Assembly: GCA_010093995.1 (NCBI GenBank)
Contig: ML992509.1
Location: 1 to 40,407, forward strand
Length of the DNA: 40,407 nt
Direction: 5' to 3'
From: Elsinoe ampelina
Lineage: Eukaryota
The position numbers were made by a program, and so were the translations under genes. A model generated the notes under the pieces. That model was given only the letters and a program-made list of their open reading frames with translations. It was not told where the DNA came from and did not search any database. Shown here piece after piece: positions 2,815 to 40,407 of this stretch (positions are counted from its first letter, which is position 1; every line of letters begins with the position of its first letter).

Positions 2815-2930
2815 TGGAATCTTGATGCCATTAAAAGTACAGTTGTTTCTACATAATTGAGCGCTGCGAACATGAAAAAACCCATGAAAAAAAAAATGGA
2901 ATCGGTGCGTCTGCTCGTACCGACCACCTC

Positions 2931-4934
2931 TCATATCGCCCGCGTCATTGCCCGTACTGTGTCGCGTGCCATCATCTCCAAATCGAGCATCCTTTCATGC
3001 TCATCTGCATCATTGCTCCCTACCGATTGCCCTGCCATGATAAAGCTGTCTACTACGTGGGTGTAACGGTTGCCCATGGCTGCTTCCAAGGATGCGATCA
3101 ATTCATTCGATCTTGCCGAAATATCGGCAGAGGCATATGCGAGTTCTTGTACAGGGGCAAGTGACGGACGAACGGAAGTCCCGCCGAGAAGTCGATGTTT
3201 GAGCTCAATCAGGTCCAGGTCGTGCTTTGCGCTTTGCGCGACAGCGCCATCACGATCGTTCTCTTGTATTGTGTCTATGTGGTGGATTGACGGTTCGGAG
3301 AAATGCCGCTTAGGTATAGAAATGGGTCGGACGTCGGATCGAGCTGTTGAGTGGTGCATCAGAGCTTGCCGTAGCGGTTGCCAGAGACCAATCTCCAGTA
3401 GCGTGCAGCCAACGCTGTAGACATCGAAGGACTTCTGGAAGGGATGATGGACGGTGCTCAGAAGCCGCGGATGTCGATACAGGTCAGAGTCGATCTCCGA
3501 TGGCATCGGCTCAGTCATTTCCCACGGGTTGTCGAGACGGGAGTACGTGTACCCTCCGATGTATGTTGTCCATTCTGATAAATTGCCTATCTGGACTTGG
3601 TCCGATCGTTTCTGGCGCCTAAGGAGGAGGATGTTACCGGAGTGTATCCCCTTGTGCAGCCATCCAGCAGTATGAAGGTCAAGTAGAGTCTCTAGCAGGG
3701 TCAATGCAAGTGAAAGTCTGGTATTCAGAGACGGTGTTGGCAACTGTGAGAACATCTGCTGGAGAGACCGTAGTTGCAACACTGGTTGTGTAGCGTATGT
3801 GCTTCTGTCGTAAGAGAGTGCACGGAGCCGTGGAGCATTGAGGCTCTCTGGAAGATCAAAGACATATCCATATCTCTTCCCAATCTGATCGACAACGTAA
3901 CCACGACATTGTAAGCTATGAAGAGTTGGCTCGATGTCTCTCAAGAAGCTTGCAATGTCATTGACCCTCTCAGACATAACTCGATCGTCCAGATCAGCGA
4001 CATACTTCCACTCCAAGAGTACAGAGCGGCCAGCATATTCGGCTAGCGTCCGATATGCCTCGCTTCGCGCTGCGCGGCTCAACGTCAACAGCCGCATGGA
4101 AAGTCTGAGGCTGTCGGCAGGCGCGTCCTTACTGGCTCTGTCTATTAGAGTGTCATCCTGCGATATGACGGAGTCCACCTCTGACAGGGGTGACCGGCGC
4201 CCGCTTTGAACATGCTCCTTGGGTGGGTCATCCAATCCGAGCCGTAGTCGACTCCGTTTCATTCTTGCAGCTGCTGAGATTGCAGAAGAGGATGTGTCTT
4301 GGCACCCCTTGCTGATGGCGATGAGTCTATGATCTGCTCTGGCTCCGATCACAGTGCTGCGTAGACACGCCTCGAGCATTCGCTCCATTCTGCGTTGTCT
4401 TGCATCTTCAAGGAGCGACCTTAGATCGCTAATGTATCCTTTGACCTTAGCCAGAAGCTTTTCGAATTTTTCTTCATCCAATGTGACCCATTTCAATCTC
4501 TTCCAAGGTTGTGTCCTCTTCAAGAACACACTCACATCGAGCCGCTCGGACCATTTGCGTTCGGGCTCGGAGGAGCGGGGTTCGATCAAGCTGTCCTGGT
4601 CGATCTGTTCGACGGTATCGTCTGTTGCTTGCAAGTCGATACCATACCGCAACTTCAATTCGCTCAAGTCCGTTAAAAGAGTCTCGAGTTGGGCCAGAAT
4701 GCCTGGCACGAGGCTCGCATTCTTCGCGCTGACCAATAGTGTCGGAGGGTCTTCGGTCAGTCCGGCTTCTTGTGCCCAAGTCGTCAGTAGATGCAGAGCA
4801 AGCGACGTCTGAAAGTTGATGTCCGATACATCACGCTGATAGTGTCGTGCTTTACCTAGAATCACCAGCCCCTTCACGCAACCGTGAAGGCAGGTCAGAC
4901 TGAGGGCCACAATGCTGAAAACATCTGCGGGCAT
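2931..4934 (-). CDS. HeLo (prion-inhibition and propagation) domain + kinase-like (pseudokinase) protein, 667 aa
   Basis: Hydrophobic N-terminal helix, then HeLo-type motifs (LLTTWAQEAGL, LSELKLRYGI, KRLKWVTLDEEKFEKLL..VKGYISDLRSLL). C-terminal kinase-like lobe: RLSLALTLLETLLDLHTAGWLHKGIHSGNILL, DLYRHP, FDVYSVGCTLLEIGLW. Single long ORF. Confidence 0.8.
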   Translation of the reverse strand: MPADVFSIVALSLTCLHGCVKGLVILGKARHYQRDVSDINFQTSLALHLLTTWAQEAGLTEDPPTLLVSAKNASLVPGILAQLETLLTDLSELKLRYGIDLQATDDTVEQIDQDSLIEPRSSEPERKWSERLDVSVFLKRTQPWKRLKWVTLDEEKFEKLLAKVKGYISDLRSLLEDARQRRMERMLEACLRSTVIGARADHRLIAISKGCQDTSSSAISAAARMKRSRLRLGLDDPPKEHVQSGRRSPLSEVDSVISQDDTLIDRASKDAPADSLRLSMRLLTLSRAARSEAYRTLAEYAGRSVLLEWKYVADLDDRVMSERVNDIASFLRDIEPTLHSLQCRGYVVDQIGKRYGYVFDLPESLNAPRLRALSYDRSTYATQPVLQLRSLQQMFSQLPTPSLNTRLSLALTLLETLLDLHTAGWLHKGIHSGNILLLRRQKRSDQVQIGNLSEWTTYIGGYTYSRLDNPWEMTEPMPSEIDSDLYRHPRLLSTVHHPFQKSFDVYSVGCTLLEIGLWQPLRQALMHHSTARSDVRPISIPKRHFSEPSIHHIDTIQENDRDGAVAQSAKHDLDLIELKHRLLGGTSVRPSLAPVQELAYASADISARSNELIASLEAAMGNRYTHVVDSFIMAGQSVGSNDADEHERMLDLEMMARDTVRAMTRAI

Positions 4935-5468
4935 TGCGAGTGTTCTGAGACGAGAGATGGCACGAGAGCAAGGTTATAAATATGACTTCCACAGGGAAGA
5001 GCTGAGCTGGTGCCATATACAGGAGCGCGGGCTGAACAGAATGGGTGTGGTACTGCGCCTTCGTTGGCAGACTTGCCTTAACTTGTACTGAGCAGCGCCA
5101 CCACACCACGTCCTGATTGGCACATTGCTCAAGAGCTGCATGTCTAGCCTTTTGTGAAACGTGAGATGCATGTTTTCGGGATCGTCGTTCAGGTTGCGAC
5201 GAGGGACACGCGGAACGGTTGCAAAATCTGCATTGACCACATGTTGTGCATGTGAAGAGTGGGTCAACTGTAGCCGCTGAGGGCGATGCACCCGCCTGCA
5301 TTGCATTGCCAGCAAGTGACCTCATGATTGGCTGTGCCGCAGAGGCTGGCAATGGACTGCGGCCCTGCCTAAGCGCCATATTCATTGCTTGAACATGTCC
5401 GGCCTCTGTTCTCCGCGCGCTCTCCATCGGCAGTCGTGTTGCCTGAGCACCGCACCAACTCTTGAGAT

Positions 5469-6663
5469 ATGGCTCCAAAAACCATATCCATCATCGGAGG
5501 CTTGGATTATGACTTGATAATGATCGCGAACCGTATTCCAGATGGCGGCGAGAGTCTACTAGCGAACGAGTATCTGGAAGCCCTAGGCGGCAAGGGAGCC
5601 AATTCCGCGATAGCGACATACAGGACTTGTCACAAAAAGCCCCAAGGCAACGATGCGTCGGCCGCCACTGATTCGATTGCGGTACGCAGGAATCCAGATC
5701 GTCCAGTCTCTCGACCACCCTACAGGCCTAACGGAGCCAAGCTCGATCTCGACATAAACGTGAGAATGGTTGGTGCAGTGGGTGACGACAAGTATGGTGA
5801 GCGCTTCTACGCCGAGTTGGAGAAGAACGGTGTGGATTCCTCCGGGATTGTCACAGTGCCAAATACCCAATCGAGCATTTGCTTTGTTATGGTAGAGAAC
5901 TACACACGAGAGAATCGTTGTCTCTTCACGCTTGGGGCTACGGCAACGTGGAAGAAGGAAGATTTCCGCAAGGTCGAAGACCTGGGACATGGCCTGCGAC
6001 CAGACTTGTGCGTCGCGCAGATGGAAATCGACAAAGAGGTTGTTGAAACAATGATCGAAACTGCTGGACGAGCCGGCATTGACTTTGTGCTCAACGCAGC
6101 GCCGGCGAATCCGGTGACGAAGAAGACCTATCAGTGGATCACACACTTCCTGGTTAACGAAAGTGAAGCCGCAATCATGTCAGGGCGAGACCTCGACGAG
6201 GTGAACGAAGGTACGTGGGGCACTATCTGTCGAGAATTCCTCAAACGAGGTGCAAAGAATGTGGTGATTACTCTCGGTGCCAAAGGAGCATACTATGCAA
6301 ACGGAACGCAGACGGGACATTGCAGGGCGTACAAGGTCAAAGTAGTGGATACCACTGGCGCAGGGTACGTAGCCTCGATTATCGGTAGACAAAGACCGGA
6401 GACTAAGAACGAACAGGGATACTTTCACAGGCGCTTACTCCTCAGACTACTTGCGGCAGAAAGAAGCTGGACGATGGGACATCGAAAAGGCTGTCATCCG
6501 TGCAAACAAAGCGGCGGCTATCACTATCACCAAGCTCGGTGCTCAGCATGGCATTCCATGGTCTGATGAGATAGATGCTTTTGATGCACCCCTGAACGAC
6601 CCCGACTTGTCGGAGCTGTCCATCTCAGACACGAGCTTGTCTGACAGGTGGCGCAGCCGCTAG
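5469..6663 (+). CDS. Ribokinase-like PfkB-family sugar kinase, 2 exons
   Basis: PfkB signatures GGKGANSA, VGAVGDDKYG, NAAPA, LVNESEA, VITLGAKGA, VDTTGAG|DTFTG. GT-AG intron 6365-6416 restores DTTGAGDTF. Stop 6661-6663. Confidence 0.9.
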
Positions 6664-6745
6664 AAGTACTTGATCATGTGAGAAGGGCAGCTGCATGGCG
6701 GGTAGATCGTCGGTCGACCTATAGATTGTCTGTCGAGTTTAAGAC

Positions 6746-8377
6746 TCAGTAACATGATGTACAGAAGACGATCTCGCCTTCGATGCGTAACCGCCTTTTG
6801 ATATTCTTGGCATCAGGACGTCTTTCCGCCGTACGTTGAAGCATCCGAAAAGTCTGGTCCTTCAGTAATGTGCTAACAGAGTCCCGGTCTGGTATTAGAT
6901 CATCTAGCCAGTCGTGGACTTTGTCTAGATTTTCACGAAATGCGTAGGCATTTTCCCGGTGTGCTACCCGACGATAGCTTTGGTAGTCTTCCAGACTACG
7001 TTTGTGCCTGACAGTGAGCATCTCACTGAATACACAGCCGAGGGAGAAGATGTCTGCTGCTCGACCTCTGGGTTGGCCTTCTGGAGGCCAGTAGACTGGT
7101 GTTCCGAAAGTCATGGTATCCAGGGAGGTTGAGCTTTCCAGACCGGAGAAGTCCTTAGCGCAACCAAAATCTGCCAGATATGGCTGATGGTCCTTGATCA
7201 GAATATTGCTTGGCTTCACATCCTCGTGTTTGATCTGCTTGGAGTGGGCGAAATCCATGGCACCCACGAGACAGCCAAACCAGGTCGTAAGATGCATCAG
7301 CTGAGTCCTCGGAAATCCATCATCAGCGCAGCTTCGAAGAAATTGTCGCAGATCGCATTCCGCAACCGGTAGCATGAACAACCCATAGGTGTCGCCCTCG
7401 AAAACATGGAATTGTACCGAAGCAATGTGGTGATGCCGTAGCTTTTGCATGATGGTCACTTCGTTCAAGACCTGCTGCTCTACAGTCGGCCTTGATCGTG
7501 GATCGCTCACACGAATGACCTTGTGTGCATAGAATGTGCCGGTGGAGGTCTCGCGCACTTTGTGAACTTCCCCATACGTCCCCTTACCCAAAGTTTCCTG
7601 CCATTCGAATTTGACGCTTGTTTCAAAGGGGTTGTACGGGCCCGCTGTCGTATTGTAATAACTGGCCTCGGTATAAACGTTCGTCCTTGCTGCGGCCTGA
7701 TCGAAGGCAGCCTGTTTCACTAGTTGCTCCCACTCTTGTTTGAGATGCGCTATCGCTTGGGTTGCGGAATCGGTCTGTGCTACAAATGCTTCGAAGTCGA
7801 CTGTCAAATAATGAGACTAATCAGAGGTGTAGAGGCGCTGTTACTGACCTTCCGTTTGTTGGTGGTCCAGCAGTTGGACCATCATATCATAACAACCCAT
7901 ATAGGTCGCAAAAATGACCTGAAGCGGCTTCTGCACGACCTCGTTGTCCGGAAATAGGGGCAGTTCGGCGCCGAAAGCTGGTACTACGTCGCACAACCGG
8001 GGGAGGTATTTTCGAACGAGGTCATCCTGCTGTCGAGACTCTAATGCCTTCTGTGAGATATCAGCTCGCCCTCACGACCAGTACGGGCATCTAACCTCGA
8101 TAGCCTCGAAGGCCTTGGACCAGAATACCGAGCTCAGTGAATTCGCGTCGTCCAAGCCCATCGACTCGTCGAGCGCGCTCACAAACGCCACAATCTGATC
8201 ATGATGTCGGAGAAAACGAGCCAGAAGTCTCTCTGGATCTCTTTCGCCGATAATGATGCATGCCTGCTTGAATTCGCGGTGGAAGCGTTGTTCTCCAGTA
8301 ACTTCGGCGCTTGACCCAGTGATCGGAAGGTCGGACAGGAATGTCATCCAGGTCGAAGAACTCCCTGAGTTCGACAT
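6746..8377 (-). CDS. Ser/Thr protein kinase with an N-terminal helical domain, 3 exons
   Basis: Complete kinase motifs LGKGTYGEV, YAHK, NE, HEDVKPSNIL, ADFG, GTPVYWPPE, DIFSLGC. Upstream exons join in frame via introns 8051-8095 (GTTAGA..CACAG) and 7801-7848 (GTCAGT..GACAG). ATG at 8377. Confidence 0.85.
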
Positions 8378-8918
8378 CGCAGCATGGTAGATCGCCAATC
8401 TCGTGTGGCTCGTGACACTATCGGGCGGTACTCACATGCGTTCTATCAGCAGCAAAGCATTGTGAGGGCTGTGGTTCGCGCCGCACGAAGGTGGGGGTCG
8501 CAAAGGGTACAACGAGAAGACCTCATAGGCCTACACTGCTTGCGCACTTGCCTACTTTAGGAAATTCGTCAAAGGAGCTTCATAAGAAGAGTGGTCAACC
8601 TGAACGTGTTCGACATCTTTTCAGCGACTCCTATGTGATTTGACAAGCTGTCGCAGTTTCTCCGCCAGAACGAGAGCAACAAAAGGTTTGGCAATAGTTT
8701 GAGGTAAAGTTTGTACGTCGTCAGATTCTTTTGTGGTGGAACGGCAAGAATTGTCACGTGATCTTGGCGGAAACGACCCGCTTTCCTCTCTCCTCTGCGG
8801 GCGCGAATCTGCTGCGACCACCAAGCCAGAGCCAGAGTCAGCACCTTTCACGCTCGCGACCGCGTCGGACCCCATCGACATTCCCGCGCAGCGTTTGCAC
8901 ATCAATTGCTCGCCAACC

Positions 8919-10932
8919 ATGGACCGCAGTCGCAAGCGCAAAGCTGATGCTGCAGAGAATGGCGACACTCCAGTCAAAAGGCAAAAATTGCCTGCGCTCA
9001 ACACACCCGAGGCCGTCACTGAAGTTGGCATGCAGTTGATAGAGTCGATGAAGGCCGCCAAGGACAAAACAGGTCGGAGCATAACTGATCTGTTCTTGAC
9101 TCTCCCCGACAAGCGTGAACTTCCCGACTATTACGAACTCATCAAGCTCCCCATCGCGATCGACACGGTCGAGCGCAAGCTGCGCAAACATGGCTACGCA
9201 ACTCTGTCCGAGGTTGAAGGTGATTTCAAGCGCATGGTCAACAACGCGAAGCAATACAATGATGATGGGTCAGAGGTTTTCGCAGATGCAGAGCGGATAC
9301 GAAAGATGTTGCACAACTGGATGAAGGTGCACAATCCAGCATACAAGGATCCGAACTACATTGCGACAGCCACACCTCTGCCAGGCGATAAGACAGGGGG
9401 TAAGAGGACAAATGGCCATACCAGTCAAACACCGGACGTCGATGTCAAGGAAGAAGAGCCAAAAGCTAAGCGACCGACCATAACTCTGTCGACCAAGAGA
9501 AGGACATCCGAGGCGCAGACGAACATTTCTGCAGCTGCGAAGGAGAAGTCGGCTCCCGCCTCGACCGACACTGCTTCGACGAATGAGTTCCAAGGCAAGT
9601 CGTTCGGACAGGTACAAGAAGCGATACTGGATGAATTCATGCAATACAAAGATGAAGAGTAAGTGCTTTCGGCACACTTTTGTGGACAAGCTGACAGCGA
9701 CAGGGGTCTGCAAATCTATCAACCATTCTTTAACCTACCGTCGAGAACATACACGGACTACTACCAACTCATCAAGAAACCAGTCTGTCTCAAGTCGATA
9801 CAGAAGCGGGCGAGAGGTCAACATGGCCGGGAGGCGGCTTCAGGTATCACTGACTTCAAGACATGGGACGCGTTCGAGGATGAGGTCTCTTTGATCTGGA
9901 AGAATGCTCAAGAGTACAACGAAGACGGCAGCGAAATGTTCAATCTTGCCGACGAGTTCAAGGCAAGTAATGTCACGAAGTAGCACTGATCATTCGCTAA
10001 CATACCACAAGGAGCACTTTCTGTCCAGACTGTCTGAAGTTAAGGCCAAAGTCGATGAGCCACAAAGCACACGCATCAAGCTCAATGCACGACCGAAGCA
10101 GGTCTTGCACTTGGGCTCAAAATCATCATCGACAAGCGCAGCCTCACCAGGTGTCACTGTAGACAACGAGGCCCTCGAGCGACAGCGACAGCTGGTTCGA
10201 GCGGGCGTCAATGGCCATCAAACGCCACAGCCACCAAAAGCAGAATCACAAGCTCCGTCGGACCCGCGACAGACGTCCACGCCCCCGACAGCTGTCAAGA
10301 CTGAGAGGTTGGCGGCTTCGCCAGCACCCGAATTAGCACGCGTTGCTAGTACCGGGCCAGATGTCCGTGCCAGCCCCCAAGGGTCAATGCCGCCACCAGC
10401 CCGGATCCCTAGCGGGAGTCCATTCCCAAACGCAACTCCGCTTGCGCCGGCGACATACACACCGTCACTGGCGCCTCAGACTGCTACTTTCGGGGAGACA
10501 TTCGCGAGGACCAAGCCTTTATCGGAAGCGTTGTTACCGAACATACATCTTTCGAGTCATCCCCAGCTTAACAGCGCGAAGCCTTTCAAGCTTGACATTC
10601 CCGCGTCTCCGGAGTATATTCAGCAATCTGTCACGGTCATGCTTCCTGCCACTCAGTACGCTTTGCAGGCCACCCCCACGGTGTCACAACAGCTGTCTTC
10701 AGGTAGACAGTACAAACTATTCGTGACTGCCAATGGCGTACGAGTGTCACCTTCTATCAGACCGATGGTCAATGGCGACCTCACTAATGGAGTGGAGAAG
10801 AAGCAGGTTTACGACATCTCGCTCATGCCAGGCGTCAATCGTATAGAGATTGAGATAGTCGCTGTCACGGGCAGAGGTGGTACACTGGAAGTAGAAAAGA
10901 CTACAGTCTTTGCAAACTTGATGAAGTACTGA
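8919..10932 (+). CDS. RSC4: Double-bromodomain chromatin-remodelling subunit, RSC4-like, 3 exons
   Basis: Bromodomain 1: LFLTLPDKRELPDYYELIKLPIA...MVNNAKQYN. Bromodomain 2: PFFNLPSRTYTDYYQLIKKPV...IWKNAQEYN. Then a Pro/Ser linker and a beta-rich C-terminal domain (PGVNRIEIEIV). Introns 9659-9703 and 9963-10011 (GC-AG). Orthology to RSC4 is inferred from architecture. Confidence 0.8.
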
Positions 10933-11268
10933 GCACGAGGCGGGTCTGGAGGAGTGCATTATGAAATTTCGGCCAAGCACCAGTCGTGACGAGCACGAGG
11001 AATGGGGCAAGTCTGGATTTAGATACCCCATCAGCATGTCATTATAGGTTAGCATGCTATGTATGAAGCATTACTATCATAAATTCCCAAGTCATGTATA
11101 TTGTATATTCTGCACGTGTGTGCATCGTCGCATGAATGAACCAATCCCTTGGCATGCATCAAAAGCCGACGCCCAACCTCGGCAACACGTCCAAAGCCTC
11201 CTCCAGCCCGTTCACTCTTCCCTCCACCTACCAACCTCCCATCTCCCACCCACACAAACAATGCAACA

Positions 11269-12795
11269 ATGACCTCCCCCGACTTCGCCGCCGCACAACA
11301 ACGCATCCTCGCCCGCCGCACCGCCCGCGCCGCCCCCAACCCAACCAATCTCCCTTCCCTCCCCACTCACCTTCCCGCACAACTCTCCGCTCTCCCCCCT
11401 CCCCTCCTCGCCGCGGCGCAAACTTCTCTCACCTTCCTGCACTCCCTGCGCTCACCTTACGGTACCCGCCCGGCCTTTCGCGTAGGCCAACTCGACGCCG
11501 AGCTGCTGGACGAAGAACTGCTCACGCTCTTCAAGGCGCAAGTGGGAGACGGACTGAAGTACTTCGGCGCGCATCTGGGTGAGGAATGGGGGTTGGAGAT
11601 ACAAGCCGCGCTGAGGGCCGTGTTGTGGAAGCTGAGTATTTGGGATAAAGGGGTGAGTTATGGGGGGTGGTTGCAGGGGTTGAGGTATGGGGATGCGAGA
11701 GGGGGGGAGGGAGGGGTGTTGGGACGGCCGACGGGGTGGCAGAAGGTCGTGTATGGGGTTGTCACGGTGGGGGGGAGGTATGGTTGGGAGAGGTGGGAGG
11801 AGTGGTTGCTTGATCGCGAGGGAGGGAGGGAGGAGGAGGGGTGGGTGGAGAGGTTGGGGAGGGTGACGAGGACGGTGGGGATGGCGCATGAGGTGGCGGC
11901 TTTTGTGAGCTTTTTGGTGTTTTTGTATAATGGGAGGTATAGGACTTTGGTGGATAGGGTGTTGGGGTTGAGGTTGGTGCCGACGAACGCGAGGACGAGT
12001 AGGGAGGTGAGCTTTGAGTATTTGAATCGGCAGCTGGTGTGGCATGCGTTCACGGAGTTTCTGCTGTTCATACTACCGCTGGTGGGGATTGGGAGGTGGA
12101 GGAGGTGGTTGGTCAAGGCCTGGAAGAAGGCGAAGAGCATGGTCACGAGAAAGAGCGAGGACGAGGATGATATCATGGCAAAGGGAGAGTTGGGATTCTT
12201 GCCCGAGAGAACATGTGCAATCTGCTACAAGGACCAGAACCCGACTACCGGCGCAAGCGAGGCGGACATCGTTGCGGCATCGAGTGGTGGAGGTGGTGTC
12301 ATTGGCAGTGCACAAACAGATGTCACGAACCCTTACGAAGCGATACCCTGCGGCTGCATCTACGACTTTGTGTGTCTAGCGCAACGGATCGAAAGCGAAG
12401 AAGGAGAAGGCTGGACGTGTCTCCGCTGCGGAGAGACGGTCAAAGAGTGCAAGCCGTGGTCAGGAGATGTCATTGAAGAGAAGCCTTCAAGATCAACCTC
12501 CGGTAGCAAAGGATCACGGAAGAGTGTGGTCTTTGCGGACGCTGGTCTAGCTGGTGAAGACTTTGCAGCAGAGGACGACGAGGATGACGGAGAAGAAGAG
12601 ATAAGCCGCGTGCTATCTCCGGTGGATCCAATGCCTCTGGAAGATGAAGCCGCAGATGATACCGGTCCATCTGATCGCGACACGGTAGACGATAATGAGT
12701 TGATCGGAGAGTCAACCGAATGGGTCGGCTACGAGGACGCAGAACAGGACGTGGACGGAGCTTCAGAAATCTCAGAAGAGGACGTCGAGGATTGA
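11269..12795 (+). CDS. PEX2: Peroxin-2, peroxisomal RING-finger E3 ligase
   Basis: RPAFRVGQLDAELLDEELL, FLVFLYNGRYRTLVDRVLGLRL, SREVSFEYLNRQLVWHAFTEFLLF, LGFLPERTCAICY, NPYEAIPCGC..., WTCLRC, acidic tail. Likely start MTSPDFAAAQQRI at 11269. Confidence 0.95.
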   Translation: MTSPDFAAAQQRILARRTARAAPNPTNLPSLPTHLPAQLSALPPPLLAAAQTSLTFLHSLRSPYGTRPAFRVGQLDAELLDEELLTLFKAQVGDGLKYFGAHLGEEWGLEIQAALRAVLWKLSIWDKGVSYGGWLQGLRYGDARGGEGGVLGRPTGWQKVVYGVVTVGGRYGWERWEEWLLDREGGREEEGWVERLGRVTRTVGMAHEVAAFVSFLVFLYNGRYRTLVDRVLGLRLVPTNARTSREVSFEYLNRQLVWHAFTEFLLFILPLVGIGRWRRWLVKAWKKAKSMVTRKSEDEDDIMAKGELGFLPERTCAICYKDQNPTTGASEADIVAASSGGGGVIGSAQTDVTNPYEAIPCGCIYDFVCLAQRIESEEGEGWTCLRCGETVKECKPWSGDVIEEKPSRSTSGSKGSRKSVVFADAGLAGEDFAAEDDEDDGEEEISRVLSPVDPMPLEDEAADDTGPSDRDTVDDNELIGESTEWVGYEDAEQDVDGASEISEEDVED

Positions 12796-13754
12796 TCTCA
12801 GGCATTGGGCGACCCAGAAATTGATCACGAGTATCCTCATGCGCAGAAACGCCAAGGCCAAATCTGTCGGTATGAAGTGATTGACGTACCATTTCGGACG
12901 ACTAAGGTAGGGAAGTCTGCCAGGCACACACTGGACGAATGGCAGTCCTCGTACGTACAAAGCCGGCCGCCGGGACTCCTGACTGTCTTATTGACAGTTG
13001 TTGAGTGCCAAAAATTGGCAAAAAGATACAGCACGAAGGATTCTCGCATAGTCACCTACTGCAATACTAACTCCGCGATCAGTTGCTTAAATATGGCAGA
13101 TCTGACGGGATGCCTTGCTTTCAACTGTCTGTGGCCGTATCTGCTTGAAGGCACGTGTTACCGTAACAAGAATCTTGTCTTTGTCGTCGTTCCACAGGGT
13201 CGCAAGAAGCTGTGTACGAGAACCATTCCTCAACGTTGCCACAGCCGTGGACACGACACAAGATCATCCTTGGAACGCATCCTGCGCCTTATACCACCTA
13301 GAGCGTAGTTTCTCGCCAGCTCTTGCAAATGATGATCCTGCAGACTGGGTCCGAGTTCACCGAGGAACAGCTCGCATATTGTTCCTCGAGACGTGGATGG
13401 CGGCTTCGGCTCGCCCCAGGACCTATCAGGACTGGATCTTGCTATTGACAGGTCGCATAGCCTGCCGTAGCTCCACTGTCGATACTATCCAAAAGTCACT
13501 CAAGCAACCGAGCTTTCCTGGTATACTGCTTCGGTGGGCCACCTCAAGGCAAAGCATGCACCCTTTCCATGTGCGAAGGAGCAACGTCAAAAGTCATTCA
13601 TCTCTCAAGAAGATCTTGATGTACAGGCCATCAAGTAAACCGGACCTCGAAACTGCCAGAGGGAGAGCGATGGTACGCTGAGCGCAACGGTCGGTCATCT
13701 GGTAGTAACACAGCTCATAAACTACCAGGGTGAGGCTCTCAACTACAGATGGCA

Positions 13755-28745: not shown

Positions 28746-31183
28746 CGTCGCTTGAGTTGACCCTGCTCTACAGAAAGGGGAGAAGCTGATCCTGGTCGCG
28801 GTGGTTCCGAGACACTTGGTGACTGCTGATCGAGCACCGGATAATCCGATTTGGCACTGAAGCATCACCTGTCTTGGGTGGATGGCCTGAAGCAGAGCTG
28901 ACGAGTCGTGCGAGAATCGGTCCTTTCTGATAATGATTGGTTGCAAATTATTGCCTCAAGTTGAAAGTCAACTTACTGCAGCAGACCTGCTTGGATGATC
29001 AGGCAGACAGATCGGCACCAATGGAGCCTATGATACTTTGTGATGGGTGAACTGTCATATCAGCATAAGCACGTCTTGAAGCTGAAGAGGTCGGGTGATG
29101 TCACCTCACGTCGCAAGCGTGGGACTTCTGCACCCCGCTCCTCTAATTTCGGCCGAATCGGCCCCCACGCAGCCGCGGTCTGTCCATCATTGGGAAAAAT
29201 CCTCTCGCATCAGGCACCACATTGGTGAACCGTACATCATGGTCAATCGTTGCCCCTTCGCGACCCGTTATGGCCGATTTTCCGATCAAGCTTGACTCTG
29301 AAGCAGTCACATTCGAGCAATATACCTGTGACCTACCATCAAGCGGCGACGATTGATGCAAACCATGTGTCAAGCAGCCACCATCTTCGGTGTAGCACAC
29401 TGCTGCAAACGCCAGACACCAAACCTGCATGAACCGCAATAAATCGGCATGGGACGGCGACGGCGCCAGTCCAGCAATCTATTTTACCGAACACACAGAT
29501 CGGATACGTTTCCCTGTCCAATGGTCCACGATCCGACGAGGAGATCCCACTTTATCGTGTCCCGCCGGAGAGGGTTTGACACCAGGAATACATTTGTAAT
29601 TTCACTACTTCCCCCGATGGGATGGTGCCGCACCCAGGCGACGCCGCGAAATGGGACGAGATATCGCCCATGGTCAAACAGGAAAAGCCACTTTCTTCTC
29701 CCCAGGTTCTATGAACTATGGCTGTCCCGAGCACCCATCTGCACAGACTCTGCTGCAGAGAGCCTATCAGGCATTTACTGTACTTCTTGGCTTAATATAT
29801 CTGGCTCTAACCTTGTTTCTGTCGTCGGGCCTCCCAATGCAAAGCCTCACCGACATTACGCTGATGATTTGTATACATGATCTTCTGAACCTTCCATGTG
29901 TACTGTGACAGTTTTGGTACATTCAATGACTAGGCCTGCAGTGCTACGCGTCGTAATTTGTCCCAAGCGACACATATCGGTCGTCGGAGTATCCGAGAGC
30001 CTTTGGAATTGTATCCATACCGTTCTTCTGGTAGCGAAGGGTTTCGCGGGTTGCCTATTTTCTTTGCGGCATCAAGACTTGAAGGCCACCGCCATTGCAC
30101 CTCCTCTAGACATTCGTCGCGCCCGCGAGAAACTTACTCTCGTTCGCACTCGCAGCGGTCAAGTTGACGCGCGGACAAACGCCATCCTCCACTTTCCGTC
30201 TGCAGAGCCGCAACATGAAGCTGTCAAGCAGATTGCTTGAACCAAGAATTCGAACATTTGCACTCGTCTCAATCAAAGCTCCACTCTGAACTCACCGCAA
30301 CCTTGCAATCCCACCACATGATAACAGACAACCACTCTCATCTCGTCTACAGCCTGTAATGCATCAGTCATCGTCTCCATACAATCTTCGATACCATCAC
30401 CACCACGAGCAAAACGACCCAGTATTCCTCGCTTGTGGCGTCCCTCCGCTCCGACCCGTCAGTGACCGTCACACGGCATATCAAATTATTACTCTACAGC
30501 AGCGCAGTAGCGGCATCAGCAACGCGCGTCATGCTTCCTTCCCGCTCTTCCTCCGGCAGCTGATTCGAGATCACCTCACTCGTTCGACAAAGTGTACCTG
30601 AACGCCGCCATCTCGCTTGCATATTCCTCTGCTGACGGCTGATCCGCCGGAAGGAGCGCAGCGTCAGGCACTCTCGAAGGATTCGAGGAAGGGAGGGAGG
30701 GAGGAACGGGCCAATCCAGCGGGAATATCCAAAGGAAGACCGATCGAAAAGACGTACTGCTTGCTGTGCTCGCTGACGAGCTGAGCCCATGCTTTCGCGC
30801 CTTGGGACCTGCTTTTGTCCTCGCTGGTCAGATGGGCCCTTGAACGTGAGACATGCATGCATCGAATACGGATGTATGCGTGAAGAAAGCACCGAAGCGC
30901 CGTGGCTGACGATGCATTTGGATATGCTTCTGCACTTCGTCTGCACCGCCGTTGAGGCTGAAGTCGAACCGGGATGATCCCACAGTCACGTCTAACGTGC
31001 TCAAGGGGGTTGAGAAGCACACCCCCTTGGGAAGCAGCTCGCTTAATTAGCAATATATGGAAAAGATGCCGCTCCCTCCCGCGTTTTTTGGCCAATCATA
31101 GAGTGCCTATCTCGGCTTGCGAATTGGACTATTACTCTAGCTTAAGCTATAATATCTTTACTACCTTATAACCCCCCCCCCCT

Positions 31184-32411
31184 ATAGCCTCTAACAACAA
31201 AGAAGCACTTATCTAAGAGGCGCTAGAGGTTCTCTAAGATCTATAAAACACTACTAGTATTTAAGAAATTGCCTACTACTTCTAGATTAGTAATAGTACT
31301 CTATTAAAAAGAAGCTAAGGAATTAGTAGTCTAAGGCCTTAAGTATATAGCTACCTTTAGTAACTATTACCTCTATCTAAGGCCTTACTCTATAAGTATA
31401 TTAAGTTCCTTATTAATAGTAGTTTTCTATCTAAATCTAAGTAATTAGTCTACCTAGCTAAGTAACTACTCTAATATTAATATGTAGCTCTTAACTCTCT
31501 CTCTTATTCTTAGCTAACTATACTTAGTATAAACTAGTTCTTCTTCTTCCTCTACTATTACTCTAAACTAGTACGCTACTAAGTATAATCTTTAGAGAAC
31601 ACTTGTGCCTATTAGACTTAAAACCCTTAGGCAATCTAGGCATAGTTTAACTATCTAGCTAGTATTATTACTAACTATAGTATTAAGCTTAAAAATATCT
31701 ATAATATAGACGAAACTAGCTTTATAATAGGAAGAGGTACTAAGCAATTTTAGATAGTAAGAAGAGATAGTAAGAGCATAAACAATATAAGGAGTAAGCC
31801 TAGCTAAAGAACATAGGTAATAGCTATTAAGGCTATAAGTGCTACTAGCTAAATAATACTTCCTTATATAATTATAAAGGGGGTAACCTTTATAGACTTA
31901 TAGTATAGACTTATTAAGAGGTTACTAGAGAGCAATTTAGTACGTTATAGATTAATTAGAGTCTTCTCTAATAGCTAGTCTTTAAACCTTTACACCGCTA
32001 AGTAGATTAAGCACTTTATTAAGTATATAGTACTAACTAATCTAGAGGACTATCGACTACTATTACTCGATAGCTACTATAGTTATAAGAGCGTTAAGTT
32101 CCTTATAGTATCTTAGTATTACTAAGTAATTATCCTCTAGCTTTTGCCTTATATAATACACCTTCTTTAGCCTCTAGATATTACTATTTTTAGCCTCCTT
32201 AAAGACGCTTATAAAGGCGAATTAGACTAGCTATCTTACGCTGGCGTAACTAAGGTTACTAACCTTTACTTTCTTAACTACTTTAGTTAAGTTTATAACT
32301 CTGTTTTTACACCTTATATATAGTATAAAGCCTTCTAAATAGCTAGTATCTACTCTTTTAATCTAGAGGCTATACTATCTAAGATTAATCGCTAACTTAC
32401 GCCGCTAATAA
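31184..32411 (+). mobile_element. pogo/Fot1-type (Tc1/mariner superfamily) DDE transposase relic, 5' part
   Basis: From ATA (ex-ATG) at 31184: HTH-like ASNNKEALI*EAL...SI*EIAYYF*ISNSTL. NIYNIDETSFIIG (~31694; NIYNMDETGF). YRLLLLDSYYSY (~32051; LLLDGHxSH). HLL*PLDITIFSLLK (~32158; HLLQPLDV..FGPLK). ASIYSFNLEA (AGIYPFNP). Confidence 0.88.
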
Positions 32412-32615
32412 TAATTACAACTAGTAAGATAAGGGAGTTAATTACGTCTATTCGTTAAGATATTAAGACTTAGAAGAAGAAGAAGAAAAGCTAGTATATA
32501 AAGCACACGTAATATCGAGGGTAGAGTAGCTAGAAGCTTAAGCTATAATACCGAGATTATATAACTAATCTAAACTACATTCTAACTAAATCTAGTTCGT
32601 ATCTATCTTATATTA
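32412..32615 (-). repeat. 3' LTR of the gypsy element
   Basis: Aligns without gaps to 38400-38603. TAAT...ATTA termini (RIP-altered TG...CA). Adjacent minus-strand polypurine tract AAGAGAGAAGGTAG. Confidence 0.93.
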
Positions 32616-35600
32616 CTACCTTCTCTCTTAAGTGTATTTACTCTTAAACGCTATTATATATTATTTATTAATCTATTTTAGCCTTAGCTTATCTATGTAA
32701 GAGTCTAGATAGTTATATAGTACATCGGCTACTCCTTTAAGATTGTTAATTAGCCACTAGGTAAAATTCTCTAGATAGCTCTTCTAGCTTATATAAGTAA
32801 CTAGTTTACTATATAGCATATGTATATTAACTATGTTATTTACCTCGTATTTCTCTTTACTATTAACTTCTACCGGAGGTAGTTCCTTAAAGGCTTAGCC
32901 TAGTAGAGAGTTATTTAGATACTTAGTAAGTAGATCGGCGTAGAATATAGAGTAGATTCGTTATAGCGCAGCTAGTAGATCTAGCTTATATACTAATAGT
33001 AACTACTTCTTAAGGATCTTATATAGACTAATATATTTTAGTAGTAGCTTTAGATTACTATATAGCTAGAGGTTCTTTGTTAATAACTATACTAAATCGT
33101 CTACCTTAAACTCTATTAGCTAGTAGTACTTATTAGCTTATTCTACTATACGCGATTAGGCAATAGCGAGGTTAGCTTTAGTAATAGCTAGCGCTTCTTC
33201 TAGTTGTTTAGCAAGTGCGCAGATGTCGACCTTATTTAGCTTAGCTCTTGTTAATAGTACGTTAGAAGGGAGTTAGAAGCTTAGCCTTAGCTTATATTCT
33301 CTAGTAACCTCGAACAGTAATAGCTTAGTACTCTCTAATAGGTTAACGTTAGTAGAGAACTCTATAACTAGTAGAATAAGAGTCTAATTGCTAAAGCGTA
33401 TAGTATATAAACGAATAACTCGCTCGAACTTATAATTTATAATCTCTAATTAGCTATCTATCTATAGATGCTCTATAGTAGATAGTTTAGTAGTAATCTT
33501 TAGGATTTAGTAGAGCCTCTTCTATACGTCGCTAACGAACTAAGGGCCGTAATCTAAGGTAATACTATTTAGTAGGCTATGTAGTTTCTATATATAGAAG
33601 AATAATAGCTTAGCTATCTCGAATATAGAGGTTTCTTCTTCTCTCTAGAAGTAAGAGATTAAGTATTGTTCCTTAGATAAGCGATTAATAATATATAGTA
33701 CTACGTTATAGCTATCTACTAGAGGTAGGCTAGTAACAAAGTCTATAGTAATATATTACTAAGGCCTAACCGGAATAGGCAATAGCGATAGGGGGCTAGC
33801 TAGTAAGCTATAGTAAGCCTTTAAGCGCTTATAGTTGTAATAATTAGCGACGAACCTCTTAACGTTAAGATTGTACTCGGGGATATAGAAAGTAGACTTA
33901 ATTATAGTAGCCGTCTTAGTAGCTCCTCCGTATATATAATTCTTCGATATATAGACTCCTTAGATAACTTTTGTAGCTATAGAGAAAGACACGATTAATC
34001 GGCTAGTAGTGTATAGTATTCTCTTCTTAATTATAACATTAGTCGATAGTAACTATTTCCTCTTTAGGAAGGCTCCTATTATACAGTAGACGCCGCGAAC
34101 TGTCTCGAAGTTAAGGTCTTATAAGTTAGCTTTAGCTACTTTATCGAAAAGAAGTAAAGGCTCTTCTATAGTAGAGATAGGTACTATATAGGTGCCTAGC
34201 TTATAAGCCGAAATAGGCAGCGAAATAGGTAGTAAAATAGGTGCTAAACTAGATCTTAGTTTAGCCTAGATTAGTAATCTAGCTTAGATACGACCTAGAT
34301 TTAGTTCGTTAATAATGTGCTAATCTAGCACTTTATGTAGTAATAGCGTCTAGCGTAGATTAGAGTCTTCCTTCGAACGTAGTACGTCTCTATTTCTCCT
34401 TATAAGTGTATTAGCCTTACTATTAGCGGCGCTAGGCCTATATATAATCTTAAAGTTAAACTACGTAAGGTAGAGAGCCTAGCGCGCTTAGTAGCGTAAT
34501 AGCTTCTAAGTCTTTATAAAATGCATTAAGGATTAGTAGTTAGTAAGGACGTAAATAGCCTTATCGAATTAAGTACTTATAAGCTTAGAGGCCTATTTCT
34601 TAAAGGCTTAGACGATTACTAATAGCTCCTTGTTATAGATTATATAGTTACATTTAGCTTTGCTTATAGATTTACTAAAGAAAGTAATAGGCTAAAGAAC
34701 GTTAGAATTATTATATTACGATAGGATTCTAGTAGTAGTAGTATTAGAGGCGTTAGTCTCGATAACTACTTACTTCGAGCGATCGAAGTACGCTAAGATA
34801 GAGACACTTATAATAGTATACTTTATGTAGTTAAACGTAGTAGTGTACTTATCGTTCTATAGCGTAGCGTCCTTCTTAGGTAGGTCGTTTAATAGCTTAG
34901 CGATAGTACTAAATCCCTTAATAAAGTAGTAATAGTAGCTATAGAAACTAATAAAGCTTCTTACCTAAGTAGTGTTACTAGGGGCTAGTTGTTTCTAGGC
35001 TTATATAGCTTTAACTTTCTTTAGATCTATCTTAACTCTATCTCGACTAATAATAATACTAAGATACTTTACTTCTATTAGGTAGAACTTGCTCTTCTTA
35101 ATGTCGGCGTTTAGGCCTAAATTGTAGAGATATTAGAGTACTAGCTTAATATGCTTAGCGTGCTCTTAGCGAGTACTATCGGTATAGATAAGAATATTAT
35201 TAAGATAGATTAACACGAAGCGCTTGAGTATATTAACAAAGTTATAATTTATAAACCTCTACTACACTATAGAGGCGTTAGTAAAGCTAAATAGTATTAC
35301 TAACTACTTAAAGTTGCCTATATATATAGAGAACATAGTAAGGTCTTTACTATTAATAGAGTTATAGAGGTAGTAGAAGGCTTAATAGATATTAATCTTA
35401 CTAAACTATTTAGCTTTACTTACGTACGTAAGTGTTTCTTTAATAAGAGGTAGAGAATAGATGTCTTACTTAGTTACCTTATTAAGGCTATAGTAATCGA
35501 CGTAAAGGCGAAGTTTACTACTAGACTTATAAATAAAAAGAATAGGTAAGGAATAGCTAGCCGAGCTTAGCGTAATAAAGTCTTTATTAAGGTACTTATA

Positions 35601-38399
35601 GATAAATAGCTCTACTATGTTAAGCTCCTTTAGTAATAGACAGTAAAGAGATTTAGTACGTAGTAGTTTAGCTCTATTCTTAAGTATAATTCGATTATTA
35701 AAATCCAGCTAATATAGAGGGAGCGTATTAGATTACTCTTTAGAGAAGACGTTAGTAAACTCTTATAGCTCTTCTAGGAGAACTACTATAGGGTCTAGTT
35801 CTAGCTTAGAAGCTATCCGATAGTAGTCCTTAATATTCTTTACCGAGATTATAAACACCTTGTTCTCTTAGTATTTAGCTACTAATACGAAGGTAGCGGC
35901 GCTAATAAAAGCAATAGTTAGCTCTTCTTACTTAGTGTTACTTACGTAGGCAGGTACGTAGAAGAACTTATATATTAGCTAAGTACTATAAGAGATTAGC
36001 TTAAACTCTTCCTAATTTAGCTTAAAGTTCGACCTAAGAGCTAGTAGTCGATATAGTCTAGTTTGTCCTATCTCGGCGGCTAAGCTAGAACCTAGTTTAT
36101 AAGTTAAATTAGAACTAAACTAGTTCCGAACTAGAGTAGTAGCTTTGCCGAGCTAGATTCCTAGATCTAAGCTAGGCTTAGATCTAGATTCTAGCCTTTT
36201 AATTAGCTATAGTAGCTCCTACTTAATAACTATTAGTAAAAACTCTTCTTTATATATAACTTAGCTATACTTATAGTCGATAGTAGCTCTATTAGCCTTA
36301 AGCTATTTAAGGCTAAGAATAATATTAAATCGGCTAATATCTATAATACGGAAGGTAGTAAGGTTATTTAGCTTACTAGAAACAGTAGTAGTAAGAGAGA
36401 CGCTATAAGTGACTTATTCTATTGGAACACTATTATAAGCCTAAAGCTAAATAGGGCTAGCTAGTGCCACTAGATAGCTAAAACTCTTTAGCTTATTAAG
36501 AATGTTATAGTTAACTATAGCGCCGATAAGCGCGCTAGTGTCGATAAAGGCTTAAAGTATAATAGTGCAAGAGTAGTTATAGAGGTTATAAATAGTAATA
36601 GGAGTTATAATAGCGGGGATATAGTAGCTAACGACGCTATTTAATAACCGCATATCTCTAGATCTATCTCGAATTGCCCTTGTTCTACTAGAGAATAGAA
36701 CTTGTCCTCTAGCTACTTGTTTCTCTAGCTAGATAAGTCGGTAAACTTATAATCCATTTCGGGGTTAAACTAAGGCTAAACTAGATCTAGTTCGTAAGCC
36801 GAACTAGTATCGACTTAGTTACTTAATTCGGCTAAGCGATCCTAGAGCTATTATATCTCTTCTATAGCGCTAATACATATAGGACATATAGTAGCGTAAG
36901 TAGCCTTCTCTAAGGCGCTAGCTATACACTTAGTAGAGATATAGCTAGGCTTACTACATGCGTAATAGGTGAGTATTAGAGCTAGACAAAAGAGCTACGA
37001 GGCTTCTCTAGTAATAGAGTAGAAGGTAGCTAGGGTAGTAGGCGTAGAAGTAGAATAAGGTACATAGATTAGTACTATAGTAGCGTAGCTTATAGCTAGG
37101 CTAGAGCGCAAGGCCTAAGTACGCTTAGTAATAAGGTTACTCTATTAGATATTACAGTTAGTAGCGTAGGCCTTTATAATAAAGGTAAAGAGGTTATTAG
37201 TATCGAAGTTAATAAGAGCGATATATAGTTTATTAGATATCTTCTAACGTAACTAGTAGAGCTATTTATCCTTAGCAATCTTAGCGCAAAGAGTATACTT
37301 ATTAAATTCGCTAATAAAGGAGTTAAAAGAGGTATTACGCTAGAAGAGGCTAGCGAACTAGGCGTACGTAGTAGCCTTATAGTTAGGGTCTTTAAAGCGC
37401 TAGGCTAAGATACTAAGGGTAGCTTTAATATTAAGAGTGTTATTACTAGCGGAGTCTATAATAAGAGTATATACTTCGCTAGAAAGGCGTAAGTAGAGAT
37501 AAGTAAACTAGGTTACCTTAGTAGAGAAATAGTTAGTATTAGCGCGTATCTTATTCTTTATCTAGTGCTTAAAAACCTCGAACTGTTCTAGAGTACTACT
37601 AGAGAAGATAGCGAGGTCTAGTATCTTTTTAGACAACGTAGTACTATATATAAAGGGAGCTAGTATAGCGTGTCTTATCTCGGCTCTTAGCTAGGCTAGT
37701 TTAGCCTTAAGTTTGCTAATGTCTATAAGGTAGCATATAGTTTAGATAGTAAGATTATTAGTAGTGCTATTAGTAGTATCTAGTTCTATTAGAGCATTAT
37801 CTAACTAGTTATATAGGTCGAGAGTATTAGTATATACTAAGTTATATATAGTAACCTATTTGTCGTAGGTAGACTTAATAAAGATAAAGGCCTTATATAG
37901 AGTAGTTATCCTATCTATCTCTTATAGCCTCTTTTTAAGGTTAGTGTTACTAAGGTAGATAAGGTTATAATAGGCTAACTAGACTAGTTTATTATTATTA
38001 TTAGTAGAGAGTAGAGGAATCTTACTTACGTAGTAACTATCTTCGCTATAGTTAGAGCGAGCTATACTCGGCGTAGTTAGTCGTAAATAAAATAGTATAA
38101 AAAGTTAACGCGTAATAAAGAAAATATTAAAAATTTTTAGCTAGCGGCCTACTTTCTTTAAGAGTCGTCTATAACTCGACTTATTACCTTCTTCTTATAT
38201 CTTCGAGGTTTATAGTATTAACCTATATAGTAGTAGCGAGGATCTATTATAATATACATAGGAACTATAGTTATAATAGCTTCTTCTTTAATTCTTTAAT
38301 TCTTCGTAAGTAATAGTTAGTAGTTATATAAGTAGTAGAATAACTAGATAATTTAATAGCTCTATCGCTTAGTTATAGTTATTTAAAGTCTCGATATAG

Positions 38400-38603
38400 T
38401 AATTACAACTAGTAAGACAAGGGGGTTAATTACGTCTATTTGTTAAGATATCGAGACTTAGAAGAAGAAGAAGAAAAGCTAGTATATAAAGCATATATAA
38501 TATTAAGGGCAGAGCGGCTAGAAGCCTAGGCTACGATACTAAGATTACGTAACTAATCTAAACTACATCCTAACTAAATCTAGTTCGTATCTATCTCGCA
38601 TTA
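38400..38603 (-). repeat. 5' LTR of the gypsy element
   Basis: 204-bp direct repeat of 32412-32615. TATA-like TTTATATA and a CTT tract on the minus strand. Followed by a self-complementary primer site at 38386-38397. Confidence 0.93.
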
Positions 38604-38608
38604 AATAA

Positions 38609-38960
38609 GAGAAGATAATAACTCCTTTAGGCCCTTTAATAGTTTACTACTTATAACTCTATTAAATTACTATTAATTTAAGTAAGTTCTTTACTATCTT
38701 ATAACTATAACTACCTTACTAGAGGAGTTACTCCGGCTAGTCTTAGCTCTTATATATACTTATACTAGAGTAGTTTTTAAGTTAGGTTAGGTACTAGAAT
38801 TGCTACCTATAACCTAACCTATAGCGATACTAGTACCTAAAGCTTAGTAACTGTAACTCTCTAAGCCTTAGGTAGTGTTACTTAGCCTTAGGTATATAGT
38901 TAGTTATAGTATTACTTATAATACTACCTAATAGTACCTATAGGTGCCTAAGAGTTAAGA
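38609..38960 (+). mobile_element. Probable 3' remainder of the Fot1-like transposase after the gypsy insertion (right end approximate)
   Basis: With the gypsy element and one TSD removed, the frame continues from ..SKINR*LTPLI into REDNNSFRPF..LITLLN. This resembles the TP-containing C-terminal region of pogo transposases. No TIR confirmed. Confidence 0.5.
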
Positions 38961-39142
38961 AGTAGATATATATCTTAAGAACTTAAGATTTAGAAATTAA
39001 AATTTAAAAGTTAAAGGTTATAATTACGTTTATTAATTATACTAATCTTGCTAGTACCTCCTATCTACTCTTATAGCCTACGCCTTACTTACTTATCTAC
39101 CTTTATAGAATAATTGTCCTTACTATAAACTGTCTAATTGTC

Positions 39143-39677
39143 CTAGTTATATATATTAAACTTTATATAATAGCAACAAGTAAGCTATAAATCTTTCTAG
39201 TTAATAGTAACTTACTTAGCATAAATACAATTAAGGTTTATATCTAAGAATATTAGTATCTATAATAGTATTAAATTTAAATAATAGATACCTTCTATAT
39301 ACCTAATAATAAATGCCTCTATTACTTCCTAAAGTGCTTTAAGAGCTTTAGATTAGATATAAAAGCTTTTACCTTAACAAATATAGTCTCTAATAATCTT
39401 ATAGACAAGGCAGCTAAAGAGGAGCTTATAGTAGAGAAGTTTAGTTAACTTCTAGTAGTAATAAATCTCTTAGAGAGTAATAGCTATATAGTATTAGTAA
39501 TGTAATATAATAATTAATTATAATAATTATACTACTAGCCTTAAACTTGTTCTTCTTTCTAGAAGCAATAGTTGTCTTATAAGGTTACTTAGTAGTAGAA
39601 GTCTTAGGTCTACTAGATAACTTACTCTTATAACTATAACTATAGGTTAGTACTATAGTACCTCTCTTAGGAGGTAT
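39143..39677 (-). pseudogene. RIP-inactivated divergent histone H3-like gene, 3 exons
   Basis: Spliced literal translation: (I)PPKRG...RKKNKFKAST ITL*EIYYY*KLTKLLYYKLLFSCLVYKIIRDYIC*GKSFYI*SKALKAL*EVIEAFIIRYIED INLNCIYAK*VTIN*KDL*LTCC. Transitions alone convert it to AGTVALREIRRYQKSTELL.RKLPF.RLVREI...RIQS.AL.ALQEA.EAF.VG..ED.NL..IHAKRVTI.QKD.QLARR. GT-AG introns 39484-39532 and 39244-39291 carry CTAAT branch relics. The 3' end is approximate. Confidence 0.9.
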
Positions 39678-40407
39678 AGTTACTATTACTACTAAGGATA
39701 GAGTCTTAGGAGATACTTATAATATAAAGTAATCTTATAGTAGTAAAGGTAAGGTAGTAGAGAGTATAGAAAGTAATAAGGTAGATATAGTAGTAGTATA
39801 AAGAAAGATAAGTAGAAAGAGAAGAGGTAAAAGAAGTAGAAGAAGAGAAATATATAATAAGAAGAGAAATACGTAATAATTTAGTAGCTAGTAATAGCAC
39901 GGCTAACAATAGGAATATAATATTATAATAGAAATATAAAATTAGTAAATTAGAAATGTATAGTATAAAAAATACTTACTTATTATAATATTATTTATAA
40001 TAGTAAGGTATATAATATTAGATTTATTTAAACGCTTAGAAAAAGAAGAATCTAGATATTATAGAGTACTAACAATAAGTACGTAATAATCTAGCGTAAT
40101 AATATAATACTAATTTAGTATATTATAATTCTTAAAAACCTTACATTTTATATTTTATATTCTACCCTAGCTACCTTATTATTACTTTATATATAGTAGA
40201 AGGCTATATTACTCTTCTCTATTCTTCTTCTTCTTCTATTAACTTTCTTTCTTTTTATCTCTACTGCCCTTTTATTTCTACGCTTTTAAGTTTAACTTTT
40301 ATATCTTATTTTACTATAGTAACCTCTCTAGATACTCTTATAGCTAATATACCTTCTAATACCTCTCCTAGTAGCTCTCCTAAGATTAAGAATAAGTTTA
40401 ATAAGTT

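Follow-up and report, generated by a model that had tools for sequence, protein, structure and literature searches.

A RIP-degraded histone H3-like gene retaining two introns within a multicopy repeat of a fungal genome

Genes for histone H3-like (H3L) proteins that travel with transposons were described in Pyrenophora tritici-repentis (Ptr), in which Manning et al. (2013) counted 26 nearly identical, transcribed H3L genes; according to the sections of that report at hand, the carriers are a 5.6-kb hAT element, composed of a transposase gene, a central ORF, the H3L gene and TIRs, and a 2.3-kb derivative (PMC3538342). Hane and Oliver (2010) listed repeat R25 of Stagonospora (Parastagonospora) nodorum SN15, with 23 copies, a length of 3320 nt and a G+C content of ~19–29%, which after deRIP matches a Ptr 'histone H3', that is, an H3L. 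In the available portion of that paper R25 is re-classified as originating from an endogenous gene region, and its similarity to transposons is given as weak (PMC3017866). Dhillon et al. (2019) reported hundreds of H3-like copies within a hAT element of Pseudocercospora fijiensis and five other Mycosphaerellaceae. In the passages of that article consulted, the consensus of this hAT element shows no resemblance to that of Ptr, and the discussion presents the Ptr event as the capture of a transcript (PMC6710886). As far as these excerpts go, RIP-degraded repeats bearing an H3-type gene (PMC3017866, PMC6710886) and a living hAT-H3L system (PMC3538342) are already published, and the locus described here is not new in kind.

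The H3L pseudogene occupies positions 39143–39677, minus strand, of the window, by which we mean the whole 40,407-nt stretch of DNA that was analyzed. Its reading comprises 145 codons and a stop (146 in total), is interrupted by nine premature stops and begins with ATA in place of ATG. Exon 1 (39677–39533, 145 nt) encodes a divergent N-terminal tail and ends in KKNKFKAS, corresponding to the family motif KK.KFKAG. Exon 2 (39483–39292, 192 nt) contains the histone-fold helices alphaN to alpha2, with a loop L1 lengthened by three residues relative to H3, and exon 3 (39243–39143, 101 nt including TAG) supplies alpha3 and a family-specific C-terminal tail, in which the codons TAT TAT ATA AAG TTT read YY.KF. 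Intron 1 (39532–39484, 49 nt) shifts the frame and intron 2 (39291–39244, 48 nt) is in frame. Both run from GT to AG and hold a branch-site-like TACTAAT, placed 9 nt before the AG in the former and 8 nt before it in the latter; TACTAAY occurs only four times on the gene strand in 1615 nt. The original prediction of a three-exon, minus-strand gene with two short GT–AG introns and branch sites, absent from the list of open reading frames, proved accurate. The gene is real and its boundaries, 39677–39143, are exactly those predicted, the introns have the lengths and branch sites given above, no ORF of at least 50 amino acids covers the gene, and all four quoted histone-fold motifs are present in the frame-2 translation. 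This copy is dead and functionless now.

To place the pseudogene among the histones, we used the translation of exons 2 and 3, with X at each stop, as the query (P0001). The match to the Pfam Histone model (PF00125) had an E-value of 3.1e-5 and a score of 24.6 bits, which is 1.8 bits short of the curated cut-off of 26.4, the scored translation containing nine X. When the PDB was searched with P0001, the best 60 of 172 matches were all H3-type chains, the top one with an E-value of 9e-8; these 60 consisted of H3, H3/CENP-A chimeras, one 'H3mm15' and one 'Histone domain-containing protein'. That the top match is an H3/CENP-A chimera is explained by loop L1 of the pseudogene, which exceeds that of most H3L proteins by three residues and in this is like CenH3. 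A library of 1.84 billion representative proteins yielded 66 with E-values of at most 0.001 to P0001, and an H3-type sequence was found in each of the 14 that were fetched (14/14). On these comparisons the pseudogene belongs to histone H3, rather than to H2A, H2B or H4. Chance similarity to a histone was considered and is rejected on the Pfam, PDB and representative-library matches together with the RIP-directed codon test described next.

In the codon test, we counted the codons of the pseudogene able to encode the corresponding residue of the Ptr H3L protein P0084. With T>C and A>G reversals only, 92 of 137 aligned codons could do so, compared with 47 of 118 when the codons were taken as read, and with 68/135 and 63/139 under two control substitution models. 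The test score was 418, against 207 ± 12 for shuffled codon order. The assertion that the likeness to H3 returns once only C>T and G>A changes are reversed is supported by the excess over the two controls. RIP is indicated by a TpA/ApT index well above 0.89 and a (CpA+TpG)/(ApC+GpT) index well below 1.03. The gene has values of 1.83 and 0.25, respectively, and the genic part of the window (1001–31000) has values of 0.57 and 1.27; the mutation of the H3-like gene by RIP is thus borne out by extreme indices. The further claim that the gene is mutated to saturation held in part: it is near saturation, and saturation is incomplete because eight CpA and five TpG dinucleotides survive in its 535 nt.

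The closest intact relatives were identified among metagenome ORFs and annotated proteins. ORFs P0005, P0007, P0011 and P0012 have a common ...RYY.KF tail and an in-frame insert that is read through after ...FEG. Searches seeded with P0005 and P0084 led to named relatives, among them the Ptr proteins P0084 and P0085, annotated as 'Histone H3' and representing clusters of 19 and 6 sequences, and further members in P. teres, P. seminiperda, Paraphoma chrysanthemicola, Massariosphaeria phaeospora and Alternaria gaisen; A. alternata contributes 16 sequences on 9 contigs. The family of P0084, P0085 and their relatives is the H3L of Manning et al. (2013), as characterized in the sections of that paper at hand (PMC3538342). 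A scan of metagenomes with the H3L alignment returned 80 loci, in none of which (0/80) was the H3L tail found; these were ordinary, mostly intronless H3 genes.

Four features were taken as diagnostic marks of H3L, namely KFKAG before alphaN, Y in GYFE, N.N in alpha3 and the RYY.KF tail, all of them picked from the present alignment without a published definition, with the groups named after the sequences had been viewed. The pseudogene bears the YY.KF tail at its C-terminus, N at the alpha3 position that changes from C to N, and KFKA before alphaN. H3L, by majority, departs from canonical H3 at 18 columns; there, the residues reachable by RIP reversal are H3L-only in ten, H3-only in two, both in three and neither in three. 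Two maximum-likelihood trees pair the pseudogene with P0094 as its sister, both on the H3L side of a starred branch (97/94 and 98/94), a placement made unsure by its very long branch (3.8–4.4) and odd composition. Because of that branch and composition, the family assignment is founded chiefly on the diagnostic marks and on gene structure. In the AU test, a clade with canonical H3 was rejected (p 0.009), and a clade with two CenH3-like metagenome proteins was 7.8 log-likelihood units worse (p 0.07), which is disfavored and unrejected. Compared with the same CenH3-like pair, the reachable residues are H3L-only at five columns, Cen-only at three and both at three.

Taken together, the marks, the trees and the AU test support the earlier claim of an H3-like gene separate from canonical H3 and akin to the H3-like genes of Pyrenophora tritici-repentis. 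The pseudogene is neither canonical H3 nor clearly CenH3, and is best placed by its sequence in the Pleosporales H3L family that includes Pyrenophora tritici-repentis, P. teres, Alternaria and Paraphoma. It resembles CenH3 (CENP-A) in being an H3 variant whose N-terminal tail is divergent and whose loop L1 is extended, and in having an H3/CENP-A chimera as its top PDB match. However, we did not find it to be a member of CenH3: set against the two CenH3-like proteins compared, it bears the C-terminal tail and the alpha3 marks of H3L, and it is multicopy and dead, which is impossible for an essential centromere histone gene.

The introns provide a separate line of comparison with intact relatives. 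One of the two sites lies after the FE-G codon and the other inside the codon before VALREI. Intron 2 corresponds in place and length (48 nt) to a 16-residue in-frame read-through in P0012, P0005, P0073 and P0011, and in the intact relative P0076 the reading frame continues across an insert at the position of intron 1. The structure of the pseudogene is accordingly that of an H3L-type gene. P0012, which is a Logan ORF, is 99% identical to the Ptr H3L protein P0084 over the aligned columns, and the annotated P0084 is spliced where P0012 reads through its 16-residue insert; therefore the Ptr-type H3L gene has an intron. Since both introns are kept in the dead copy and P0012 contains the read-through, the H3L lineage was propagated as genomic DNA rather than through a transcript. 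This agrees with the original prediction, which held that the gene was copied as DNA rather than retroposed, and which is supported by the coincidence of both intron positions with those of intact relatives. If P0012 represents a Ptr-type element, its read-through would argue against the transcript capture in Ptr as it is stated in the available discussion of PMC6710886.

The FE-G site was also encountered outside H3L. The CenH3-like proteins P0008 and P0010 and the H3 variant P0019, all metagenome ORFs, likewise contain a read-through insert at FE-G. The site is therefore not exclusive to H3L, and from these ORFs an intron at the FE-G position seems to be common to fungal H3 variants.

The copy number of the locus was assessed with contigs from three public runs, placed on 36000–40407 at a likeness of at least 80%. 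X1 and X2 are two runs of one sample (organism A), which is possibly the source of the window itself, and X3 comes from organism B. The fraction of sampled words of 30408–40407 present was 0.66 in X1, 0.63 in X2 and 0.05 in X3. Over the four bins covering the gene, the summed contig depth was 2282–5741 in X1, 4313–10766 in X2 and 5623–12881 in X3, and single listed contigs had depths of 108–265, 191–310 and 121–185, respectively. The bin 38646–38792, which lies in the spacer to the left, had summed depths of 555, 599 and 1517 in the same order, and the adjoining gypsy element reached 8,000–109,000 in X1, 9,000–104,000 in X2 and 1,500–145,000 in X3. The interval 38793–40407 as a whole shows a depth pattern like that of the H3L gene itself, with contigs 80–99% like the window in the three runs. 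In X1 and X2 the summed depth over this repeat is 10–45 times that of a single contig. We take this to mean no more than that organism A has diverged copies numbering about ten to a few tens, an estimate that rests on summed depths of short contigs, and these do not equal copy number.

Alternative letters recur in many separate contigs: 39422 G>A was present in 8, 3 and 10 contigs of the three runs, 39747 A>G in 14 X2 contigs and 40338 T>C in 35 X3 contigs. Transitions account for 452 of the 478 places of change in X1. Together with the RIP indices, this transition-dominated divergence between copies shows that the repeat carrying the H3L gene fits a RIP-mutated repeat. The summed depth and the many variant contigs over the gene and both flanks bear out that the gene is multicopy, as had been claimed, and many dispersed copies of the H3L gene and its flanks are present. 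We therefore delimit a multicopy, RIP-diverged repeat at 38793–40407, based on contig depth, variant contigs and RIP indices, with its right end beyond the window and its left end falling between about 38650 and 38940; the single X3 contig joint is at 38766. One X2 contig joins 39306, in exon 2 of the H3L gene, to the start of a gypsy LTR at 38400, and thus another copy of the H3L repeat sits in another context. It seems that this other copy, in the same sample, was split by the same gypsy family. In organism B, which has only 0.05 of the exact words, many contigs are 80–99% like the H3L repeat. As these X3 contigs match 38793–40407, the repeat family is common to two organisms.

A short imperfect inverted repeat, TTAGGTTAGGTA ... 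TACCTATAACCTAACC, spans 38781–38822, right at the start of the high-copy H3L repeat, and may represent either a subterminal structure of the element or a chance occurrence.

The repeat is the last component of an AT-rich block. The G+C content is 0.50–0.64 up to ~31 kb, and 0.25–0.35 from 31 kb to the end of the window. The block opens with a relic of a pogo/Fot1-type DNA transposon on the plus strand (31150–32407), recognized by a DDE_1 domain at 31817–32225 (25.1 bits, cut-off 22) and severed by the insertion of a RIPed 6.2-kb Ty3/gypsy LTR retrotransposon on the minus strand (32408–38606). The latter has two LTRs (32408–32615 and 38396–38603, 88% alike), an RT_RNaseH domain at ~34568–34853 and an integrase SH3 domain at ~32918–33098; no TSD could be confidently read in its flanking letters. 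The gypsy element looks complete and is similar in length to the S. nodorum gypsy family X15, for which the available part of PMC3017866 gives 6231 nt, a resemblance only. A low-copy spacer of 186 nt (38607–38792), fully RIPed, with no CpA and no TpG, separates the gypsy LTR from the H3L repeat. The immediate left neighbor of the H3L repeat in the AT-rich block is consequently the gypsy element, not the Fot1-type relic, and the H3L repeat comes last and runs off the right edge.

We then considered what carried the repeat. No transposase or other Pfam domain was found in the H3L flanks (38607–39142 and 39678–40407, six frames, X at stops), and over the whole AT-rich block Pfam detected only DDE_1, the gypsy domains and Histone, with no hAT transposase or dimerization domain. 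Within the window, which includes only 730 nt of the repeat upstream of the gene, no TIR or TSD of the H3L repeat was found. The case for mobile carriage is consequently built on copy number and the precedents published for Ptr and S. nodorum, and we infer the identity of the carrier because the window extends only 730 nt beyond the start of the gene. By analogy with those systems, the carrier would most likely be a hAT-type DNA transposon or a non-autonomous derivative of one. The letters at the possible left end, 38766, begin TAGAG, which resembles hAT termini, and this is no more than a lead to a possible hAT terminus at that position.

The resemblance to the Ptr hAT-H3L system, as far as the sections at hand describe it (PMC3538342), extends to the same protein family (92/137 reachable codons), the tail and KFKAG motifs, intron 2, the multicopy state and the position of H3L as the terminal gene of the repeat unit. 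In contrast, the Ptr copies are near-identical, intact, transcribed and little affected by RIP, whereas the present copy is RIP-destroyed; no hAT transposase, central ORF or TIR is seen in the window, and the N-terminal tail reads MPPKRG... here and MARTK... in Ptr. R25 is likewise a RIP-degraded Pleosporales repeat, and its kind, copy number, composition and gene content match those of the present repeat, the comparison being one of statistics in the available text, not of sequences (PMC3017866). The H3 copies of Mycosphaerellaceae, in the excerpts consulted (PMC6710886), also reside in a DNA transposon, are confined to AT-rich blocks and have all been killed by RIP with stop codons; however, they lack introns, as copies of a captured transcript, and stem from the H3 gene of the host itself, whereas the present copy has both introns and belongs to the H3L lineage.

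Our observations are probably best explained by a dead H3L copy that was amplified with its introns in a DNA repeat and killed by RIP, the carrier most likely being a hAT element. According to this explanation, H3L would be an H3 variant lineage of Pleosporales whose gene, with its two introns, came to lie inside a DNA repeat unit of at least 1.6 kb. The unit was amplified to roughly tens of copies in this genome, as the contigs show, and RIP detected the copies as duplicates and introduced the C>T and G>A changes that are visible as nine stops and a lost start codon. The carrier may have resembled the 5.6- and 2.3-kb hAT-H3L elements of Pyrenophora tritici-repentis and the 3.3-kb R25 of Stagonospora nodorum, and the H3L copy would later have come to lie beside the pogo/Fot1-type relic and the Ty3/gypsy element in one AT-rich block.

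We weighed this explanation against three others. The pseudogene might be a host gene present only once and never mobilized, a paralogue of H3L or CenH3-like type, killed by RIP leaking from the gypsy and Fot1-type repeats. Two bona fide transposons do lie directly alongside in the same AT-rich block, neither a transposase nor a TIR was found beside the H3L gene within the window, and the intact H3L genes annotated in several Pleosporales genomes may be ordinary genes there. However, RIP leakage extends a few hundred bases only, and extreme RIP here spans at least 1.6 kb; moreover, numerous distinct contigs match the gene and its flanks, at 10–45 times the depth of a single contig in X1 and X2, and the adjacent spacer is close to single copy. 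We regard a solitary gene as unlikely. The original prediction had envisaged multicopy cargo of a mobile element and had named the Fot1-like element to the left as one possible carrier. The multicopy part stood, whereas carriage by the Fot1-like element, with H3L inside its terminal repeats, is quite unlikely, since the 6.2-kb gypsy element and the low-copy 186-nt spacer separate the Fot1-type relic from the H3L repeat and high copy number begins only at ~38.8 kb. Terminal repeats joining the two were sought by transition-tolerant local alignment of 30900–31400 with the reverse complement of the right-hand region. The score was 63 against 38600–39300 (shuffle maximum 75.5) and 76 against 39300–40407 (shuffle maximum 73), not clear of shuffles. 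The published carriers of the H3L family are hAT elements in the available part of PMC3538342, the same part in which Manning et al. (2013) describe a Ptr Tc1/mariner element with a foreign ORF, a precedent for such cargo; the convergent orientation, and the closeness of relic and gene if the gypsy insertion is subtracted, also speak for a Fot1-type carrier.

It is highly improbable that the locus arose by segmental duplication of the host's canonical H3 or CenH3 gene followed by RIP. The reachable identity to canonical H3 (80/113) is as high as that to H3L proteins, yet the diagnostic columns favor H3L over H3 by 10 to 2, the YY.KF tail, the alpha3 N and KFKA are all H3L marks, and the canonical H3 clade was rejected at p 0.009. 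An origin from CenH3 would be in keeping with the long, CenH3-like loop L1, the H3/CENP-A chimera as top PDB match and the unrejected clade with the CenH3-like pair (AU p 0.07), against which stand the columns distinguishing H3L from that pair, 5 to 3 in favor of H3L.

The present locus adds one genome, and probably a second organism (that of X3), to the few fungi in which an H3-type gene was multiplied in a repeat and then RIPed. Beyond what the consulted sections of PMC3538342, PMC3017866 and PMC6710886 describe, it provides a dead copy in which both introns are kept, alongside intact H3L in several Pleosporales genera. The general picture, transduplication followed by RIP, is unchanged by the introns or by the spread of H3L. 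Intact H3L proteins with the same marks over several Pleosporales genera point to an origin older than a recent event in Ptr. We tentatively raise the possibility, which we consider open to considerable doubt, that H3L is an old, intron-bearing H3 variant lineage that has traveled with a DNA transposon through Pleosporales, rather than a recent transcript capture in Ptr. On such a reading, H3L may be intact and expressed where RIP is weak (in Ptr and perhaps in P. teres and Alternaria), and may have been amplified and then killed by RIP in this genome, in the organism of X3 and in the R25 repeat of S. nodorum. If an old transposon-borne lineage is indeed involved, a transposon family would have long maintained its own histone, implying that the histone serves the element.

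Elsewhere in the window, a long ORF on the minus strand at 2934–4973 was found to encode a prion-inhibition-and-propagation (HeLo, PF14479) domain protein whose affinities are Pleosporales-like and no more specific, its best named relatives being from Pyrenochaeta and Lophiotrema, with 46–51% identity.
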